From NCBI GenBank assembly GCA_039028615.1, contig JBCCHT010000001.1:288001-352000 (forward strand): DNA of 64,000 nucleotides, in the 5' to 3' direction. The notes under the pieces are model-generated. The model was not told where the DNA came from and searched no databases. It worked only from the letters and a program-made list of their open reading frames with translations. Source of the DNA: Myxococcota bacterium (GTDB lineage Bacteria > Myxococcota_A > Polyangia > Nannocystales > Nannocystaceae). Numbering within the stretch: the first letter of the stretch is position 1; the number at the start of each line of letters is the position of its first letter. Shown here piece after piece: positions 45,707 through 56,147 of the stretch. The translations under genes and the position numbers were made by a program.

Positions 45707-46344
45707 CGTCGGGTCACCGCGGCCACCATGCCGGGTCGGCGCCACAGCGCCGCGACGCCGCCCGAGAGCGCGACGATGAGCACCGAGACGTGGCCCGACC
45801 ACAAGTGCACGGGATGGGTGAGCGGACAGTGCAGGTGCAGGCCGACCATGGCCACCAGGGTCCCCGCAGCCAACAGCGCGAGGAACGACAGCGGCGAGCG
45901 ACCGCTGACGGTCAGCCAGCGCAGCAGGCCCACCACCACCAGGGTCATCGCGCCGCCCACGGTGAAGCACGCCAGCGCACGGGGCACGAAGTCGACGCCC
46001 ATGCCCAGCGTGGACTCGGGGTGTAGCGTGTGAGCGGAGGGCAAGAGCGCCACTCCCACCGCTCCGATCACGGTGAACACGAGCGCGGCGGGCAGGCTGC
46101 GTCGCCACCGAGACCCGCGGGCTCCCGGGCGCAGCGCGAGGTCGAGGGTGAGCACGGCCGGCAGGGCCAGCAACGCGAGGTCGAGCACGAGCCGCCAGGT
46201 GGGAAAGACGCTCAGATCGGCGCGCGGCCGCACGACGACGATGGCGACCTCGAGCGCAGTCGCGATCAGTAAGCCCAGGACCAATCGCACCGCGGCCGGA
46301 GCGCCCGCCACGACGACTCGAACATCATTGAGACGACGCATCAT
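45703..46344 (-). CDS. NrsF/DUF1109-like membrane anti-sigma protein
   Basis: Multiple TM segments; LHLHCP...HL..GH. Confidence 0.65.
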   Translation of the reverse strand: MMRRLNDVRVVVAGAPAAVRLVLGLLIATALEVAIVVVRPRADLSVFPTWRLVLDLALLALPAVLTLDLALRPGARGSRWRRSLPAALVFTVIGAVGVALLPSAHTLHPESTLGMGVDFVPRALACFTVGGAMTLVVVGLLRWLTVSGRSPLSFLALLAAGTLVAMVGLHLHCPLTHPVHLWSGHVSVLIVALSGGVAALWRRPGMVAAVTRR

Positions 46345-49168
46345 CCGACCGTGAGCCGTATTCCGCGGGTGGCCCTTCGGTTACCGGATGCCGTCGATCG
46401 TCGAGCCACTGCCTCAGCTCGCGGCGCACCTGCTCGGCGTCGGAGTAATGAGCGATGCGCTCGAGGGTTCGCTCGGCGACGTCGCGGGCTTCGTCGGGAT
46501 GCCCGGCGCCCCATAGCGCTCGGGCGAGCAGGCCGCCGGTCTCGCCCACGGCCGGGCTGCCTTGGTAGCGCTGCCGTCGAATCTCCAGCGCCCGGGACAG
46601 CGACTCGATGGCCTCCTCGGGCTGCCCGAGCTCGAGCAAGGTTCGACCGCGGCCTTCGAGTCCTCGCGCCATGCGGGGATGCTCGGGACCCCCTGCCGCT
46701 TCGATGACCTCGAGACCGTGGTCGTAGGCCGCCAATGCGGCGGCGGGTCGACCCTGCGCCAGCTGCAGGTCACCCCGGAACACGGACACCGTGCCCAAGT
46801 CGACGCTGTGCTCGTCGTAGAGCCCTCGCAAGATGGCCTCGGCCGCGTCGAGCTTCTGCTCCGCCGCGCGGTACCGCCCTTGCCGGGTGTCGATGGCCGA
46901 CAAGTACACCTGCGGCATCGCGACCGCGGGGTGATGCTCGCCCCGCGCGGCGCGAGCCACCTCGAGGGCGCGGGAGAACAGCCGCGTCGCCTCGTCCGGC
47001 TGGTCCCGTTGCCACGCGATGATGCCGAGGTTGTGGAGCGGCGTGCCGAGCTGCGGGTGCTCCGGCCCCAACGACGCGCTGATCCGATCCACCGACTCGC
47101 TCCACAGGGCCACCGCTCGATCGCGCTGCCCGAGATAGAAGTGCGCCGCCGCCAAGTGGGTGAGGTCCTCGGCGATCTTCGGATGCGCGTCGCCGTAGAC
47201 GGCACGATCGTGGTCCAGGATTCGTTCGTCGAGCACCAGCGCGTCGGCGAATCGGCCCTGGCGGAAGGCGATCGCGGCCTCGAGCCCCTGCGGCGCCATG
47301 CGGAGCGGATCGTGCTCGGGGAGCGCGTCGGCAAAGGGCCGGGCCACGCGAGCCCAGATGAGCCCCTCGGCGTAGCGCTGGCGGTGATACCCGACCAGGT
47401 TGCCGAGCCCGGTCGCGGCAGCGACCGCAACGGAGGCGCGCTCGGTGGCCACCGCCAGATCGAAGGCTTCCTCGAAGGTCCGCATGGCGTCGTCGAGCTG
47501 CCCCTGCCCCTCCTGGGCCTTGGCCACGGTGACGCGCACCTCGGCGTGCACGGGCCCGACCGGCAGTTCCTCGAGCTCGGCCTGCAGCGCGACCAAGGGC
47601 TCGTAGGCGTCGCGATAGCGTCCCGCCGCGACCCGGGTTCGCAGCCTCGCCAAGCGCAGGCCGTGCGCGAGGGCAGCCTCCCCCATCGCGGCTTCGCCAT
47701 GGCCGTGCTCGCACTCGACCAGCCGGGGCAGCGCCTGCACGATTTGGGGCGCGGACTCCACCACCGAGGCCAGGGGCTCGTCCCCCGGGTCGGCCAACAG
47801 CGTCACCACCTCCTCGAACGACGCGAGCGTGCGCTCGAAGCACGCCGCTCGCTCCGCCCGCTCGCGCTCGCCGACCGCGGCCTCGACCCGCGCCGCCACG
47901 CACAGCTCGAGACGCGCCGACCTCCACGCCTCGGCATATTCATCGAGCGACGTCAGCGTGCGCTCGACCTGCTGCCGCGCGTAGGGCAGCGCCGCCTGCT
48001 CGTGCGCCTGCCGAACCTCGTCGCGGCGCGCGGCCGTCCAGGCCTCGCCGACCACGTCCCCCACCCCATCGCAGACCTCGGCGTCCTCGGTCAGCAGCAA
48101 CGGGACCAACAGCGCCGCGAAAACGATGGGCGTGGCCAGCAACATCACCACCCGGTCCGGCCATCGCTGCTCGCGCTCGAGCGCCTCGAGCAGGCTGTGC
48201 ATGTCGGGCCAGCGCTGCTCGGGCTCCGTCTCGAGTCCCCGGTCGAGCACGCGTCGCAGGCCCACTGGGACCCGAACCCCGCGGGGCGGCGGGCGTCGCT
48301 GGCCCTTCGAGATGCTCCACACCAGCTCGAACGCGCTCACGCCAGCAAAGGGCCGCTGCCCGAACAGGGCCTCCCACAGGGCCACGCAGTAGCTGAACAC
48401 GTCGCTGCGCGCGTCGATCTTGGCGCCCAGGATCTGCTCGGGAGCCATGTACGCGGGGGTCCCCACCAGCTGGCCGATGGCCCGCGCCGTCGTATGCGGT
48501 CGCACCACTCGCCCCGACTTCGTCGCCTCCGTCTCTTCGGTCTTGGCGAGGCCGAAGTCGAGCACCCGCGCATGGCCACCGTCATCGACCATCACGTTGT
48601 CCGGCTTGAAGTCGCGGTGGATGACCCCCGCCTCGTGGGCGGCCTGCAGCCCCCGCCCGGCCTCGATGAAGATACGCAGGATCTCGCGGTTCGATCGGGT
48701 GGTGGAGCGCAGCCAGGTGGTCAGGGTCTGGCCCGCGACCAGCTCCATCGCCACGAAGACCTGTCCCTCGTGGACCCCGACGTCGAACACGTGCACGACA
48801 TGGGGATGAGACACCCGGGCCAGGGCTCGGGCCTCGCGTTGCAGTCGACGTCGTCGCGCGTCGTCTCGCTCGCCGCGGCGCACGAGCTTGACCGCGACGT
48901 CGCGCTCGAGTTCCGCGTCGTAGGCTCGAAAGACGTCCCCCATCGCCCCCGAGCCCAAGCGCTCGTGGACCTCGAGGCGCCCGATGGTCGCCGGGGCCTG
49001 ACAGGGCTCGGTGACCGGCTCGCCCATCGCGATCTGGGGCAGCGTGGTCTCAGGCCCCGCCCGATCCACGGACGTGAAGGTCTGCATCTCGCTGGGCACC
49101 GCGGGCAGTCGCGACGGCACCGGTGCCTCCCCGTCGAACAACGTGTCGAGTTCGTGATCGACGCTCAA
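46325..49168 (-). CDS. Ser/Thr protein kinase with TM segment and TPR repeats
   Basis: [34 protein letters not shown] repeats. Confidence 0.92.
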
Positions 49169-49290
49169 GCCTCGACGCTCCTGAAACGGTATCCGTCTCG
49201 AACGAGCGGAGTTACGGGTGCAACGTTGTAAGGGAAAGATTCGTGGTCGCTCCCAGTACATGCACGTACATCTGATAGCCTGAAGCCACG

Positions 49291-49956
49291 GTGAGTTCGG
49301 ACGCACGACCCGACGACGACACCGAACCGGACGTCTCGGGCGCCTCGCCGTCCCTCGACCGAGGCGCGATTCCGCAACAGCCCCTCGGGCGATCGAGCAA
49401 GGCGATGATCCGCACCGCGCTCTTCGCCAATGCGAGCCGGGCTCGCGTTGGGCGCTTCGAGCTCCGCGGCAAGCTCGGCCAGGGCGGCATGGCCTCCGTG
49501 CTGCGAGCCTTCGACGAGACCCTCAATCGGGACGTCGCGGTGAAGCTGCTGCACCGCGACCTGAGCCGCGAACACAACAAACGCTTGCTTCGAGAGGCCC
49601 AGGCGCTCGCTCGCTTGTCGCATCCAAACGTAGTGCAGGTCGGCGAGAGCGACGGCGAGACCTTCATCGCCATGGAGTTGGTCCGCGGCAACCGTAGCGC
49701 CGCGACGGGCCACGCCGAGCGAGCCGTCGCGAGCGACGAAGGACACCAAGGACCGCCACATGCCGTGGCGGATGCCCGTTTCGTGCTCGCCCGCGCGCTG
49801 GGATCGGAACCGAAGCATGCGGAGCGAGCTCGAACGCTGGCCGCCCGAGTGCTCGAAGACCTGTCCAACGCCGGTCCCTCGGGAACCGGTCGCATCGGGC
49901 GGATCGAAGCGTGGCTCGCCTCGCAGGGGGTCCACACCACCACGGGTCCAGGGTAG
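49291..49956 (+). pseudogene. Internally deleted Ser/Thr kinase (N-lobe joined to the C-terminal TPR tail)
   Basis: LGQGGM, VAVK and HPNVV present; HRD, DFG and APE absent. Confidence 0.75.
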
Positions 49957-49967
49957 GCTGCGGGGCA

Positions 49968-50585
49968 GTGAAAACGGACGCAGAGCTGCTGTACGCCTGG
50001 CGCGACGGAGACGAGGTCGCGGGGGAACAGCTCTTCGAACGCTACTTCGACGCCGTCGGTCGGTTCTTCTTCAACAAGGCCAGCGGGGATCCCGAAGACC
50101 TGGTGCAGGAGACCTTCGCCTCGTGCGTACGGGGTCGCGACAACGTCCGCGACTTTCGCTCGTACCTGTTCGGCGTCGCCTACAACGTGCTGCGCGCGTA
50201 TATCCGTCGCAAGCAACGGCCCGATTCCTCGCCCAACGCGGACGAGGTCTCGGCGTGTGACCTGGGGCCCGGCCCTTCGACGGTCATGCATCGCCGCGAG
50301 GAGCAGCGGCTGCTGCTCGAAGGGCTCCGGCGCATTCCCTTCAACTATCAGATCGTGCTCGAGCTCCACTACTGGGAAGAGATGACCACCGCTCAGATCG
50401 GCGAGGCGTTGGGCGTGCCCACCGGGACGATCCGCAGCCGGCTGAAGATCGGTCGTCAGAAGCTCGAGCAAGCGCTAACGCGCGTATCCGCGCCCGCGGA
50501 CGTGCTCGACAGCACCATGAGCGACCTCGACGGCTGGGCCCGGAAGCTGCGGCGCTCGGTCGAGGACTCTTCGCCCTCGACCTGA
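49968..50585 (+). CDS. ECF RNA polymerase sigma factor
   Basis: DLVQETF, FRSYLFG, GTIRSRL. Confidence 0.9.
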   Translation: MKTDAELLYAWRDGDEVAGEQLFERYFDAVGRFFFNKASGDPEDLVQETFASCVRGRDNVRDFRSYLFGVAYNVLRAYIRRKQRPDSSPNADEVSACDLGPGPSTVMHRREEQRLLLEGLRRIPFNYQIVLELHYWEEMTTAQIGEALGVPTGTIRSRLKIGRQKLEQALTRVSAPADVLDSTMSDLDGWARKLRRSVEDSSPST

Positions 50586-50594
50586 GCGAGCCCC

Positions 50595-52613
50595 TCACTC
50601 CGCCAGCAGGTCCTCGATCAACGCGTCCATCTCGGTGACGTTGAACGAGTTCTTCACCGCCCGCACCACGAGGTTCTTGTCGATCACGATGTCGCGGGGA
50701 TACGGGTAGCCCACGCCCTCGGGGAAGGCGAAGTCGTACAGCGTGCCTTCGTCGGCGACCACGGGGAAAGTGATGCCCGTCTGCTCGAGGAACGCGGCCA
50801 CCTGCTCCGGCGGATCGCCGGGGTGGATGCCGAACACGATCACGTCCTCGTCCTGATACTTCTGCCAGATGGAGGTCTCGATGTCTGGTAACTCCAGACC
50901 GCAGATGGGTCAGAAGAGGGCGAAGTAGGCAAGGACGACCACCTTGCCCCGCAGCCCTTGCAGCTGGGGAGAACCAGTGGGGTCGAGGAACGCGAATTCT
51001 TCGGTCAGCGTGTCGCCGACGTCGATGCCGCTGGTGTCACGGGCGACCAGCGGAAGGTTGGTCGGGTTCTGGCTCGCATCGGGATCGTTGTTGTGCAGCC
51101 GCAGCGTACTCGTGCCGCCATCGGGTGGAGGCGGCTCGTAGACGATCTCGAGGGCCCGAGCCGACCGCGGCGGCACCCTCAGCCAGGACTTGTCGGTGGA
51201 AAAGGGCGGCTCCAGCTCGATGTCGAGCACGTCGAGATCGAGATAACCCCGGTTGCGCACCGCGAGCACGCGATCGGAGGGCTCGTCTTCGGAGAAGCCG
51301 AGCAGCTCCTCGTCGACCCACAGGTCGGGCGCGACGTAGCCCGGCCGGTACTCGACGACGTGCATCTTGGTCCACTCCCCCACGTAGAGGAAGCCGTCTT
51401 GGATCTCGACCGCCACGTCCTGCTCGAAGGAGGGAGAGGAGCGCACGCGCTCGGTGGCCAGTAGCTGCAGGGTCTCGCGATCGTGCACCGCCACGTGGCT
51501 CCACGCCGCGATCGCGATGATCTCGTCGTCCATCGACACGGCCTGCGCCGTCCCGCGGGTCTCGATGTGGCCCACGCCCAGCGGCGCGCTCGGGATGGAC
51601 ACGTCGACCACCTCGACGCCGTCGCCCCCGAGGGCCAGCAGCGCGCGGTCACCATCGACGAAGACGTCGCGGACCATGCCCGGGATCTCGAAGTGCCCCA
51701 CGTGCTCGGGCTGCAGCGGATCGGCCAGCGACAGCACTCGGATGCCGCCCACGCCATCGGCCACGTACAGGTGGTCGCCGTGCACCGCCGGCTTGGTGGC
51801 GTTGTCGAAACCGTCGATGACCTTCTCGAGCGCAGGGATGCCCTGGGCATCGGTCGTGTACACGCGCAGGCCACCGCCGTGCGCAGCCACGTACAGGTTG
51901 CCTTCGTGGTAGACCACGCCCTCGAACAGCACCGTCGGGTCCTGCTCCATCTCCATGAGCGAGGAGCCCTCTTCGTTGACCCGGAAGGCGGCGAGGAACG
52001 GGGTATCGACCCAGGTGTCGCCGTGGTGGGTGAAGTAGATGACCTGCGCGTCCCCCTGATCGGGCCCGAACGCGGCGTGCTGGCACCGCGCCGTGGCCGC
52101 TGCGATCACGAAGGGATCGTCATGGTTGGTGATGTTCTCGATGGTGGCGCCGAAGCCTCCGCAGGTGACCGCCAGGTCGCCCTGCACCTCGATGTCGACG
52201 ATCTCGGCGCCGGAGCCTCGCGCCCGGTGCACCAACGAGTCCCCCTCGGCGCAGCAGGTGCCCTCGAGGATCGGCGTCGCGTCGGCGCAGCCCCGGCCCT
52301 GCCCGCAGGGCAGGCACTCGAGCCCGGGACAGGCGTCTCCGCCCGGTGGCCCGGGGGGCGGAGGGCCCTGGCCATCGCCATTGCCCCCCGCGTCCTCGGC
52401 CCCTCCGGTGTCGCCCGCCGAGCCCCCCTCGGTCGCGGCACCGGTGCCCGAGCCCCCGTCCCCCGTTTGCGCCCCTGGGCCCCCACCCAGATCGCTCACG
52501 GAGCGGCAACCGGACGCCCCAAGGACCACGCTCGCCAACACCAGGGGCCACGCGGCAGCCCCGACGAAGCTCGGGGACGACCCCGAGCCCAGCCCATGTT
52601 CGTCGCCAGTCAT
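50595..52613 (-). CDS. Probable selenoprotein: lipoprotein with LVIVD-like repeats, an Ig-like domain and a C-terminal TlpA/redoxin domain (UxxC)
   Basis: In-frame TGA at 50910-50912 in LAYFALF-U-PICGLELP; the frame continues to 50595; SECIS-like hairpin follows. Confidence 0.8.
50883..50899 (-). promoter_or_regulatory. Putative bacterial SECIS element
   Basis: GTCTGG-AGTTA-CCAGAC, 10 nt after the UGA; G in loop position 2. Confidence 0.65.
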
Positions 52614-52837
52614 GCGGACACTCCGACGCTCCGTGCAGGGCGTCGTGTCGCAAACGATCGACGAGCCGCAATGTTACCGAGGTCGGAAAATGCGAAATTC
52701 GCGCCAGACCTGATTTCGGGCGCACGGCGGGCAGCAAAGCCCGCCCGTCCCCGGCCCATCGGTCGTAACATCGGTTTGTGCGGTCCGTTTGGCGAACACC
52801 TCGCCCGGCTTCTTCGGCCGCGCCAAGGCTCACGACC

Positions 52838-53608
52838 ATGCGGCAGCAAATCCTCGGACTGGTGATGGCGAGCGCAGCATTCGGCTGTGCCCCGCCGCCC
52901 GTGATTCCCGGCAGCGACGACAGCGGGGCGCAGGCCTCTGACGACGGTGAGGGCGACTCCACCGAAGCCTCCGCCATGGACGGCGCACAGCTCGATCCCG
53001 CCTCCCTCGATCGCAGCACCGCGGCTGGGCCCTGCGGCTACCCCGGGCCGGGCGACGCGGGCTACGGCACCGACGTGGGCCAGCGCCTCGCCGACAGCGG
53101 CTCCTTCGAGCTCATCGACTGCGAGGGCAACTCCTTTTCCATCGCCGACTTCATGTGCGAGCGCGAGGGCGGGGGCTACAACGCGGGCGTCCTGCTCAAC
53201 CTGGGCGCCGGGTGGTGCGGCCCCTGCCAGGAAGAGACCCTCGAGTTTCCCGAGATCTACGAGGAGTACCACTCGCGCGGCATCGAGATCGTGCAGGTGA
53301 TGTTCCAGGACTGGGACGCGCAGGCCCCCACCCGCAGCTTCTGCACCGACTGGAGCGAGGGCCAGTGGCGCACGGGGGCCGACGGCTCGACCCAAGACGT
53401 CGGCGTGCGACTGCACTTCCCCGTGCTGCTCGATCAGATCAACGACTGGACCTCGATCTACTTGCAAGACCCGCAGTCGGCGACGCCGGTCAACATCCTG
53501 CTCGACGCCAACGGCAACATCCGCTGGAAGCTCGAGGGGCAGCAGCCCGAGCTCGACCTGCTGCGCGCCCAGTTCGACCTCGTGCTCGCCAACCCCTACG
53601 GAACCTGA
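52838..53608 (+). CDS. TlpA-like thioredoxin-fold lipoprotein
   Basis: AFGC lipobox; WCGPC. Confidence 0.85.
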   Translation: MRQQILGLVMASAAFGCAPPPVIPGSDDSGAQASDDGEGDSTEASAMDGAQLDPASLDRSTAAGPCGYPGPGDAGYGTDVGQRLADSGSFELIDCEGNSFSIADFMCEREGGGYNAGVLLNLGAGWCGPCQEETLEFPEIYEEYHSRGIEIVQVMFQDWDAQAPTRSFCTDWSEGQWRTGADGSTQDVGVRLHFPVLLDQINDWTSIYLQDPQSATPVNILLDANGNIRWKLEGQQPELDLLRAQFDLVLANPYGT

Positions 53609-53611
53609 GGC

Positions 53612-54112
53612 ATGCGGCTCACCACCATCGCTCTGCTCGGCGCCCTGACGACCCTGGGCTGCGCCTCCTCGGGGGCGGGCCCCCGCGGTCTCGACATCGC
53701 CCTGCCCGGCCTCGACGGTACGCTGGTCACCCCCACCCCGGCGGCGGGCGACGAAATCTACGTGCTCGCGTTCTGGGCGACCTGGTGTCAGCCCTGTCAG
53801 CAGGAGCTCACCAAGCTCGACGCCTTGTACGCCGAGAAGAAGGGACGCGGCCTCGAGGTCTATGCCATCAACATCGACAGCCCCGACACCACCGCGCAGG
53901 TCGGGCCCTGGGTCGAGCGCGAGGGCTACTCGTTCCCGGTCTTGATCGATCGAGAGACCCAGGTGCTCACCCGCTACAACCCCCGCGGCGACATTCCCTA
54001 CTACGTGGTGCTCGACGCCACGGGGAAGATCCTGCACGACCACCAGGGGTACATGAGCGGGGACATCGACGAGCTGAGCGCGTTCCTCGACGGCGTGCTT
54101 CGGCCCGGCTAG
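53612..54112 (+). CDS. TlpA disulfide reductase-family lipoprotein
   Basis: TLGC lipobox; FWATWCQPC. Confidence 0.9.
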   Translation: MRLTTIALLGALTTLGCASSGAGPRGLDIALPGLDGTLVTPTPAAGDEIYVLAFWATWCQPCQQELTKLDALYAEKKGRGLEVYAINIDSPDTTAQVGPWVEREGYSFPVLIDRETQVLTRYNPRGDIPYYVVLDATGKILHDHQGYMSGDIDELSAFLDGVLRPG

Positions 54113-54134
54113 CCCCCCACGGATCGTAGGTCTG

Positions 54135-56147
54135 GTGCTGCTCGAGGTCGCGACTGCTCTGATCCTCGCCTCGGGCTCGGCCGCGTCCACGGACGGGCCC
54201 ACCGAGATCGCGCCCGATGCGGACGCGGCGGAGACGAGCCCGTCGGAGCCGCCCACGGTCGCAGCCGCCGAGCGCACGGCCGAAGCCACCGAGGAGCCCG
54301 AGGACGCCACCGAGGCGCCTGCGGAGGCCACTGAGGACGAGGTCCCCGCCGAGCCCCCGAAGAGCGCTGCGCCGCCGTCCGAGCCGCCCAAGCGATCATG
54401 GCGCGACCGCACGCGCATTCCCTCGTCGCGGGTCGGCAACGCGATCATCCAGCCGTGGGTCCGCAGCACCACCTTCGTGCAGTGGTACCGGGAAAACTAC
54501 AACACGCAGCAATCGGACGATGGCTTCGTCGCGCTCGTGCAGCGCCTCGGGACCGGCACCGACGTTCGCCTGAAACAGGTCACGCTGGGCACCCAGCTCC
54601 GCCTCGATGGCCAGAAGATCTGGTTCCCCGACTCGCAAGATTGCTCGGGCGACTGCGTGCCCGTCGAGGACGACGTCCGGCTCGAGCGCTTCACCGTGTC
54701 GGCGGACACCCGCTACTTCTCCGTGCAAGGTGGTGACTTCCAGGCCTCGTTCGGCCGCGGCATGGGCCTGAGCGTGCGCAAGGTCGACCTCATCGGCGTC
54801 GACGCGACGATCAAGGGCGGCCGGGTCGATCTTCGTACCAAGCCGGTGCGGGTCACGGGCATCGCGGGCTTCGCCAACCGCCAGAACAGCGACTTCGCCA
54901 CCCGGCAGCTCATCGAAGACCCGGGCTATCCGGGGCAGTCCTATACCTTCTCGCCCGACACCGAGGACCGCGGCTGCAACGTCGACGGTGCCCTCGATCC
55001 CGACTTCGGCAACCCCCTGTGGACCATCTGCTCCGATCTCGTGGCCGGCGGGCGCGTCGAGGGCAGCCTGCCGGGCAAGGTCGAGGTCGGGGCGCATCAC
55101 GTCTATCTCGACTACGGCGACGAGGTCAGGGCGGGGGTGGTCGACGAGCACTCGCACCTCATCGGTGGCGACATCGCCCGGGCTCGCATCGCGGGCGTCT
55201 GGGACATGTTCGTGGGCGCGTCGGGGATCATCCGCAACCCGAACCTGCGCGGCACGCCGCTCGAGCCCCAGAGCTTTCGCGGCTACGGCATCTATGCCTC
55301 CAACGTGTTCGTGGCCGGCACCACCACCATCTTGGTCGAGGCCAAGCACTACCAGGACTACCTGCTCGCGCTGTCGCAGAACTCCCTGCTGCAATACGCG
55401 GAAAACCCCACCCTCGAGCGCGAAGACCAGCAGGTACCCGGCAACCAAAACGCCACTGGGGCTCGGCTCCGCGTGGACCATACCTGGCGCGACCTCGGCC
55501 TGACCGTGTTCGGCAGCTCGCTCGAGTACGCCTACTCCGAAGATGTCGGCACCTCGGCCTTTCGCTCCGACGGACGCCTCGCCACCCACAACTACGCGGG
55601 CGTCATCTGGCGGAAGAAGGGCACCGACTTCGTGCTCCAGGTCTCGGGTGGCTACCGCTACGAGCGGTTCCTCGATCCGCCCGTCGGCAGCCCGCTGCGC
55701 CGCCGCTTCCCGCACGCCGAATTCTACGTGACCATCCCGGTCGCCAAGGCCAACGGGCTCACCCACACGATGTCGGTCCGCGGCGAGGGGCGCTGGGAGA
55801 ACTTCCGTACGGTGGGCAGCGGCGAGGACTTCTTCCGCGGCCTGCTCACGGTGGGCTACAGCATGAGCCCCTGGTTTTCCGTATCGCTTCTGCAGGGCAT
55901 CGACACCGAGCTGCCGACCCCGCCGGGCGAGCCTTCGCTCACCGACGAAGAGTGTGAAGGCGGCGCGGGCTCGACCTGCCGCCCCCACCTGTGGCCCGGG
56001 GTTCAGGCGCAGATCAACCTGTTCGGCGCGAGCTTCCTGCGGCTATTCGCGGGACGACAGGTCGGCGGCCGCGTGTGCGTCAACGGCTCGTGCCGCACCC
56101 TCCCCGACTTCGAGGGCGTGCGCAGCGAGCTGGTGTTCTCGTTCTGA
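54135..56147 (+). CDS. Outer-membrane beta-barrel protein (DUF6029-like)
   Basis: Amphipathic strands, C-terminal Phe, GGRVCVNGSCR tail. Confidence 0.7.
   Translation: MLLEVATALILASGSAASTDGPTEIAPDADAAETSPSEPPTVAAAERTAEATEEPEDATEAPAEATEDEVPAEPPKSAAPPSEPPKRSWRDRTRIPSSRVGNAIIQPWVRSTTFVQWYRENYNTQQSDDGFVALVQRLGTGTDVRLKQVTLGTQLRLDGQKIWFPDSQDCSGDCVPVEDDVRLERFTVSADTRYFSVQGGDFQASFGRGMGLSVRKVDLIGVDATIKGGRVDLRTKPVRVTGIAGFANRQNSDFATRQLIEDPGYPGQSYTFSPDTEDRGCNVDGALDPDFGNPLWTICSDLVAGGRVEGSLPGKVEVGAHHVYLDYGDEVRAGVVDEHSHLIGGDIARARIAGVWDMFVGASGIIRNPNLRGTPLEPQSFRGYGIYASNVFVAGTTTILVEAKHYQDYLLALSQNSLLQYAENPTLEREDQQVPGNQNATGARLRVDHTWRDLGLTVFGSSLEYAYSEDVGTSAFRSDGRLATHNYAGVIWRKKGTDFVLQVSGGYRYERFLDPPVGSPLRRRFPHAEFYVTIPVAKANGLTHTMSVRGEGRWENFRTVGSGEDFFRGLLTVGYSMSPWFSVSLLQGIDTELPTPPGEPSLTDEECEGGAGSTCRPHLWPGVQAQINLFGASFLRLFAGRQVGGRVCVNGSCRTLPDFEGVRSELVFSF

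Follow-up and report, generated by a model that had tools for sequence, protein, structure and literature searches.

Redoxin selenoproteins with a UxxC motif are already known. Table 1 of PMC13188914 (2026) lists 119 selenoprotein families, among them a Prx-like thiol:disulfide oxidoreductase (PF00578, UxxC) and a Redoxin family (PF08534, UxxC). For the bacterial SECIS, the same source gives a consensus with the loop 16–37 nt from the UGA and a G within the first two loop positions. TlpA, ResA and CcmG, together with the surface lipoproteins Etrx1 and Etrx2 of Streptococcus pneumoniae (accessible text of PMC3914529), were grouped here as extracytoplasmic-reductase kin. The accessible text of PMC6107167 describes a conserved cleft formed by the thioredoxin-like domain and the NHL propeller of NHLRC2. 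For DUF6029 barrels, polysaccharide export was suggested from likeness to the Wzi barrel (PMC9603273, accessible text).

The window analysed here, a 64,000-nucleotide stretch of a Myxococcota genome, encodes a predicted protein that shares its Pfam domains, the UxxC motif and a SECIS directly 3' of the UGA with the Prx-like and Redoxin families of PMC13188914. Unlike the entries of that source, it would have a lipobox, a seven-bladed propeller and an Ig domain ahead of its Sec at position 568. Among the 119 entries as tabulated there, none is listed as a propeller or Ig fusion, and from its sequence the propeller-Ig fusion appears to be a new architecture. No description of an LVIVD/propeller-fused selenoprotein or of such a Myxococcota family was found in the literature searched; the BSepDB family table and Haft and Tolstoy 2025 (mSystems) may bear on novelty. 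BSepDB relied on tblastn according to its accessible description, and members of the family may have entered it labelled generically as redoxins.

Likeness to TlpA/ResA/CcmG comprises a ResA-type fold (NF002854, E 2e-11), a predicted lipid anchor and a DsbD/CcdA membrane domain encoded in the source genome. The protein differs from these and from Etrx1/Etrx2 by predicted Sec in place of the first Cys, by large N-terminal domains and by several paralogues per genome. With NHLRC2 and SOQ1, as far as covered by the accessible texts (PMC6107167, 10.1101/2024.11.01.621559), it has in common a thioredoxin-like domain, a beta-propeller and a third domain. Its order is the reverse (propeller-Ig-redoxin), the repeats are of LVIVD and not NHL type, and Sec and a lipoprotein signal are predicted. 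Both proteins were missing from the sequence matches and the top fold matches of the selenoprotein, and the resemblance is to be taken as an analogy that does not imply homology. Compared with DUF6029 as presented in the accessible part of PMC9603273, the neighbouring barrel is distinguished by an invariant Cys pair and by TlpAs that flank it or are fused to it. Coordinates of all features are given in Table 1.

Table 1. Features of the predicted selenoprotein gene and the adjacent cassette (positions in the window).
Feature	Position	Strand	Basis or remark
Predicted selenoprotein gene	50595..52613	-	672 aa, Sec predicted at 568; the terminal TGA codon is the actual stop
In-frame UGA, putative selenocysteine codon 568	50910..50912	-	Homologue codon counts
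Bacterial SECIS hairpin GUCUGG-AGUUA-CCAGAC (predicted)	50883..50899	-	Covariation, codon forcing, consensus
Predicted lipoprotein signal peptide, lipobox ASG-C36	52506..52613	-	Sequence, C36 conservation
Gly/Pro/acidic low-complexity tether, residues 37-91	52341..52505	-	Sequence
Small Cys-rich segment, residues 92-123, six Cys	52245..52340	-	Kept mainly in close subfamily
Seven-bladed LVIVD-type beta-propeller, C151/C177 pair	51348..52244	-	Pfam, model, conservation
Ig-like (HYDIN/ASH/choice-of-anchor D-like) domain	51045..51332	-	Model, domain searches
TlpA/ResA-type redoxin, U568-P-I-C571, YPYP loop (P639)	50598..51032	-	Pfam, model, conservation
Divergent TlpA-like lipoprotein, GAGWCGPC type	52838..53608	+	Pfam; single copy in genome
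TlpA/ResA-like lipoprotein, FWATWCQPC	53612..54112	+	Pfam, NCBIfam
DUF6029-like outer-membrane barrel	54135..56147	+	Single copy; about 24 long strands in model
Barrel Cys pair C648/C653 (CVNGSC), short hairpin before last strand	56076..56093	+	Conservation, model

The gene is read from the minus strand (52613 to 50595), a detail absent from the preliminary description. A 567-aa ORF ends with GKVVVLAYFALF and is followed by TGA at 50912-50910. Past this codon, the same frame stays open for another 104 residues, beginning PICGLELPD, until a TGA stop at 50597-50595, so that the full product would have 672 aa. The internal TGA occupies the first Cys position of the redoxin motif (context LAYFALF-U-PIC). 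An LVIVD repeat was matched upstream, and in the read-through product an AhpC-TSA match (Pfam, E 5e-14, residues 550-652) spans the TGA, as does a Redoxin match (Pfam). With UxxC, PF08534 and PF00578 scored above the Pfam cut-offs (52.6 bits versus 26 and 41.1 versus 26.6). GC3 did not drop behind the TGA (0.90 upstream versus 0.92 downstream). Translation and homologues thus confirmed that the ORF halts at a TGA on the first redoxin Cys, and the Pfam match agrees with the further 100 or so residues that had been proposed to complete the redoxin fold.

Two other origins of the TGA were rejected. An assembly error was dismissed in view of the TGA kept across loci and of a Logan contig, from the probable source run and hence no independent sample, that is identical over the TGA region. 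Genome-wide reassignment of TGA was rejected because this codon ends the selenoprotein gene and many others; the TCA-anticodon tRNA reported by ARAGORN is tRNA-Sec.

A scan of positions 50500-53000 found no promoter, and one terminator-like site at chance level. An ECF sigma factor gene converges on the 3' end of the selenoprotein gene with a gap of 9 bp. It shares window positions 46325-50585 with a Ser/Thr kinase-TPR-like gene and a kinase fragment, both named as kinases from their motifs.

Homologous loci were drawn from 40 related genomes, GTDB genomes and metagenomes. From 92 alignments, 78 loci were retained after dropping 2 without coverage of the site, 9 duplicates and 3 stand-alone TlpAs. 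Search patterns used for part of the loci favour the close subfamily and leave the codon at the site unconstrained. The codon was TGA at 77 of the 78 distinct loci and TGC at one. Coding continued for 98–116 residues past the TGA in 74 of the 77 TGA loci (two reach contig edges, one looks misassembled), and conserved coding sequence flanks the UGA on both sides. Cys was found at the aligned site in the natural homologues L054, P0083 and P0321, and the Cys versions are full length. These Cys forms were placed apart in a quick tree, which leaves separate origins unproven. Tandem (L044, L046, L120, G157:C35) and divergent (L068, L097) pairs of family paralogues were also seen.

A sample of 121 genomes of the phylum was searched with an Ig-plus-redoxin profile, scoring at most 22 candidates per genome. 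It yielded 38 matches in 16 genomes, all 38 with one TGA (counted anywhere within the match), and up to 9 family copies per genome. SelA was present in 16/16 carrier genomes versus 70/121 overall.

In the source genome (96.7% complete), SelA, tRNA-Sec, SelB and SelD all scored above curated cut-offs. The search for selA, selB, selC and selD advised in the preliminary description thus returned the complete set, and the homologue alignment it also advised revealed a retained TGA with a covarying hairpin instead of Cys. Other likely selenoproteins of the genome are a formate dehydrogenase-like gene, a GPx-like gene and several Prx-like UxxC genes. Further in-frame TGA candidates were located at G000:C36:110514, C18:212460, C6:131401, C18:139362, C42:70068, C60:23343, C11:238829, C5:96454 and C2:229521; they comprise formate dehydrogenase-like, GPx-like, Prx-like UxxC and AhpD-like genes, the GPx and AhpD labels being our assignments from motifs. 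Remote from the cassette, the genome has two paralogues of the selenoprotein gene that share its UGA and SECIS type (G000:C50:47745-49598 and G000:C14:15090-16931). Tight tRNA gene arrays, possibly on mobile DNA, were noted at G000:C27:171191-172216 and C23:6428-7170. At G013:C1073:2500-4478, a SelB match is split across two frames, possibly by an assembly error.

The putative SECIS begins 10 nt past the TGA, where positions 50899-50894 pair with 50888-50883 (6 bp) around the loop AGUUA, as had been noted before. The loop begins 16 nt past the UGA and has G in position 2; spacing and loop G both agree with the consensus given in PMC13188914. Stability of the single sequence was not better than that of shuffles (z between -1.9 and +0.2 in the four windows scored), so support for the hairpin comes from comparison across homologues. 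For covariation, 75 of the 77 TGA loci were used, leaving out the two other paralogues of the source genome. The six stem pairs hold in 98.4% of 450 cells, and four of them account for 35 two-sided changes. Slid controls reached 15–47%, and 0/500 shuffles were as high, a test that overstates because the sequences are kin. The locus with TGC lacks such a hairpin.

Judged by synonymous choice, with backgrounds from the same genes, the hairpin forces rare codons. Leu at +7 was TTG or TTA in 53/53 cases (background about 0.09), Phe was TTT in 22/22 (0.17) and Gly at +4 was GGT in 52/54 (0.10). Within the gene itself, the two stem codons earlier called rare fared differently: TTA is unique (1 of 56 Leu codons), and CCA is only uncommon (4 of 49 Pro codons).

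Taken together, the conserved UGA, the covarying SECIS-type hairpin and the full Sec machinery most likely indicate one 672-aa selenoprotein, which supports the reading originally proposed. From these comparisons of sequence, we put the probability of Sec read-through at codon 568 at about 0.97.

In public databases, 230 distinct proteins terminate at the Sec codon. In a first search, 79 of 81 family matches (the window's own protein and five weak repeat-only matches left out) stopped exactly at the codon; the others were one full-length Cys form and one apparent frameshift. In a search with the Cys form, 85 proteins were picked from 119 matches; 82 of them stop at the codon and one is another Cys form. 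An all-protein profile search was dominated by repeat proteins, and 36 new single-stretch matches, among the matches listed, all end at the motif. GenBank entries MEM6990810.1 and MBW2456571.1 are truncated 'hypothetical proteins', and the GenBank names seen were mostly 'hypothetical'. The splitting of the gene by annotation pipelines had been anticipated, and database entries indeed end at the Sec codon. Named records were mostly Myxococcota or Deltaproteobacteria MAGs; several further ones are labelled Rickettsiales, Enterobacteriaceae or Proteobacteria (labels as deposited). At protein level only, the motif (FASW, FATF) was also seen to be where the distant LVIVD-Ig proteins P0348, P0352, P0360 and P0340 terminate. 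Since Atlas clusters of such size were mostly Fidelibacterota and one match bears the name Terriglobales, members of the family may occur outside Myxococcota as well.

Export of the product is predicted from residues 1-36, which resemble a lipoprotein signal; the hydrophobic stretch and lipobox Cys were recognized by eye and by a crude pattern, and at least 90% of the 68 homologues in the alignment retain C36. In P0022, P0045, P0075 and L086, the place of the Gly/Pro tether is taken by long stalks of Cys-rich Dicty_CTDC repeats, which can reach about 1200 aa, an arrangement resembling surface proteins. A model of residues 92-672, computed with Cys in place of Sec (pLDDT 95.3, pTM 0.93), contained seven blades, an Ig domain and a redoxin, in agreement with the architecture proposed in the preliminary description. 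C151 was kept in 64/66 rows and C177 in 63/64, divergent paralogues included. Near-invariant residues of the redoxin part are C571, E574, P576, P617 and P639. On the propeller, 19 of 20 conserved residues lie on d-a or b-c loops or adjoining strand ends, and blade topology suggests that the conserved polar ones share one face. Among paralogues, the propellers diverge far more than the redoxin part.

In fold searches, which barely tested the Ig and redoxin parts, the best propeller matches were generic WD40 folds (Z about 33–34), which gave no substrate clue. A sequence search of solved structures returned only Ig (Hydin-like) and weak propeller matches, and no match when run with the N-terminal part. 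No NCBIfam model reached its cut-off for the selenoprotein (ResA 44 bits versus 170, TlpA 17 versus 230).

Next to the gene, window positions 52838-56147 hold a widely conserved three-gene cassette of two TlpAs and the barrel, from which the selenoprotein gene is transcribed away in the source genome. The preliminary description had used the TlpA at 53612-54112 for motif comparison only and overlooked the recurrent partnership; the tie to the cassette, judged from gene adjacency and co-occurrence, is new here. Both the barrel and the GAGWC-TlpA are single-copy in the 12-Mb source genome. The barrel matches PF19494 just above cut-off and also DUF6029 clusters of Myxococcota. Its Cys pair is invariant in 29 barrel sequences (CxxGxC) and, in the model (pLDDT 80.9, about 24 strands), sits in a short hairpin that joins the final two strands; we read this hairpin as a probable outer loop. 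A fold search with the barrel returned generic outer-membrane barrels with TM at most 0.48 and named no function.

The barrel was found within 5 kb of 8/78 family genes, and of 6 of the 32 genes flanked by 4 kb or more in each direction. The GAGWC-TlpA stood beside 19 of the 78, 9 of these 19 being outside the profile seeds. Either cassette gene was near 9 of the 32 well-flanked family genes and neither was near 23; both other paralogues of the source genome belong to the genes without a cassette gene nearby. Cassette-adjacent loci were scattered on separate branches of the quick tree, and two more adjacencies (G004, G041) fall outside these counts. L071 and L089 encode fusions of a TlpA with the barrel. 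At L098, two TlpAs, the barrel, the family gene and a SelD-like gene follow each other in one direction. This SelD-like gene (L098:6708-7793, AIRS and AIRS_C domains) lies directly downstream of the family member. A rhodanese-domain gene is located directly upstream of the family gene at L065:5265-5792 and L089:5209-5691. At L171 (G012:C160:90000-106000), from a genome that lacks Sec machinery, the cassette is directly adjoined by three additional CxxC proteins, possibly Cys-only counterparts of the selenoprotein.

The barrel was present in 12/12 carriers among 40 relatives (23/40 overall) and in 15/16 carriers of the phylum sample (53/121 overall), carrier G147 giving no barrel match. Fisher's test for co-occurrence gave p 1e-4, which overstates because related genomes were counted as independent. 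The family is missing from 21 of 36 barrel-positive genomes that also have SelA. Some barrel-positive genomes of the phylum sample are without SelA. From adjacency and co-occurrence, a functional link between the family and the TlpA-TlpA-barrel cassette is probable.

We slightly favour a role of the predicted propeller-Ig-UxxC lipoprotein as an envelope thiol/selenol reductase fed by the cassette. SelB would read the hairpin so that Sec is inserted, and the protein would be exported and lipidated at C36. Electrons may pass from DsbD/CcdA via the cassette TlpAs to re-reduce the U568-C571 selenenylsulfide. The conserved propeller face would bind the substrate, and paralogues with diverged propellers may serve different substrates. 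For this reductase scheme as a whole, the odds appear about even. A more specific version, which we regard as doubtful, places the selenoenzyme at the surface-exposed end of a so far undescribed relay that carries electrons through the outer membrane. There, periplasmic TlpA would pass electrons to the invariant Cys hairpin of a plugless DUF6029 barrel and on to the selenoenzymes (up to nine paralogues per genome), each diverged propeller picking its own extracellular substrate.

Alternatives concern both the stop codon and the function. It is highly improbable that the UGA simply ends translation, as a genuine stop or through a nonsense mutation, so that the gene would yield a propeller-Ig lipoprotein and the redoxin part would be a separate fragment or a dead one. 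Every gene caller annotates a stop here and an 82-aa ORF can start downstream; moreover, Sec decoding at low selenium probably yields the truncated product as well. This reading is opposed by the position of the stop, which falls on the catalytic site inside a redoxin fold in 77/78 loci and only in Sec-positive genomes, by the covarying hairpin with its forced rare codons, and by the full length of the Cys versions. If the selenoprotein is real, its role could still be that of a general antioxidant of the periplasm or the surface, Prx-like or TlpA-like and recycled via ordinary DsbD/CcdA; propeller and Ig would then be adhesin or spacer, and clustering with the barrel would reflect shared redox regulation only. 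We consider this somewhat unlikely. It fits the location of most family members away from the cassette, the 35 AhpC-TSA matches over cut-off in the source genome and the common occurrence of LVIVD, Ig and Dicty repeats in surface proteins. It does not readily fit the recurrence of the single-copy barrel and GAGWC-TlpA beside separate family branches, and the predicted clustering of conserved residues on one propeller face would suit a binding site better than a spacer.

The redoxin might instead act in cis or as an oxidase/isomerase, maintaining C151-C177 or folding Cys-rich surface proteins, with the propeller as the catalytic part. An analogous case is SOQ1, in which, according to the accessible text of 10.1101/2024.11.01.621559, the Trx-like domain hands electrons on to the C-terminal domain of the same protein. 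Retention of C151 and C177 even in divergent paralogues, the conserved His/Asp/Glu adjoining them in the close subfamily and the fixed domain packing suggested by the pTM would be consistent with such a role. The His/Asp set is lost in divergent paralogues, however, C151 and C177 link neighbouring blades and may be structural, and no propeller enzyme was prominent in the fold search. We consider action in cis or as an oxidase/isomerase improbable.

For the selenoprotein reading, the consequence is that a large family is systematically truncated in public databases, so that selenoproteome counts for Myxococcota and annotations of the family genes are wrong. An almost purely Sec active site, a cleanly covarying SECIS and several paralogues per genome make it a good model family for the attachment of substrate-binding domains to a Sec redoxin. 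The probable link to the cassette would name a concrete candidate client for the DUF6029 barrel and would make outer-membrane thiol transfer directly testable.
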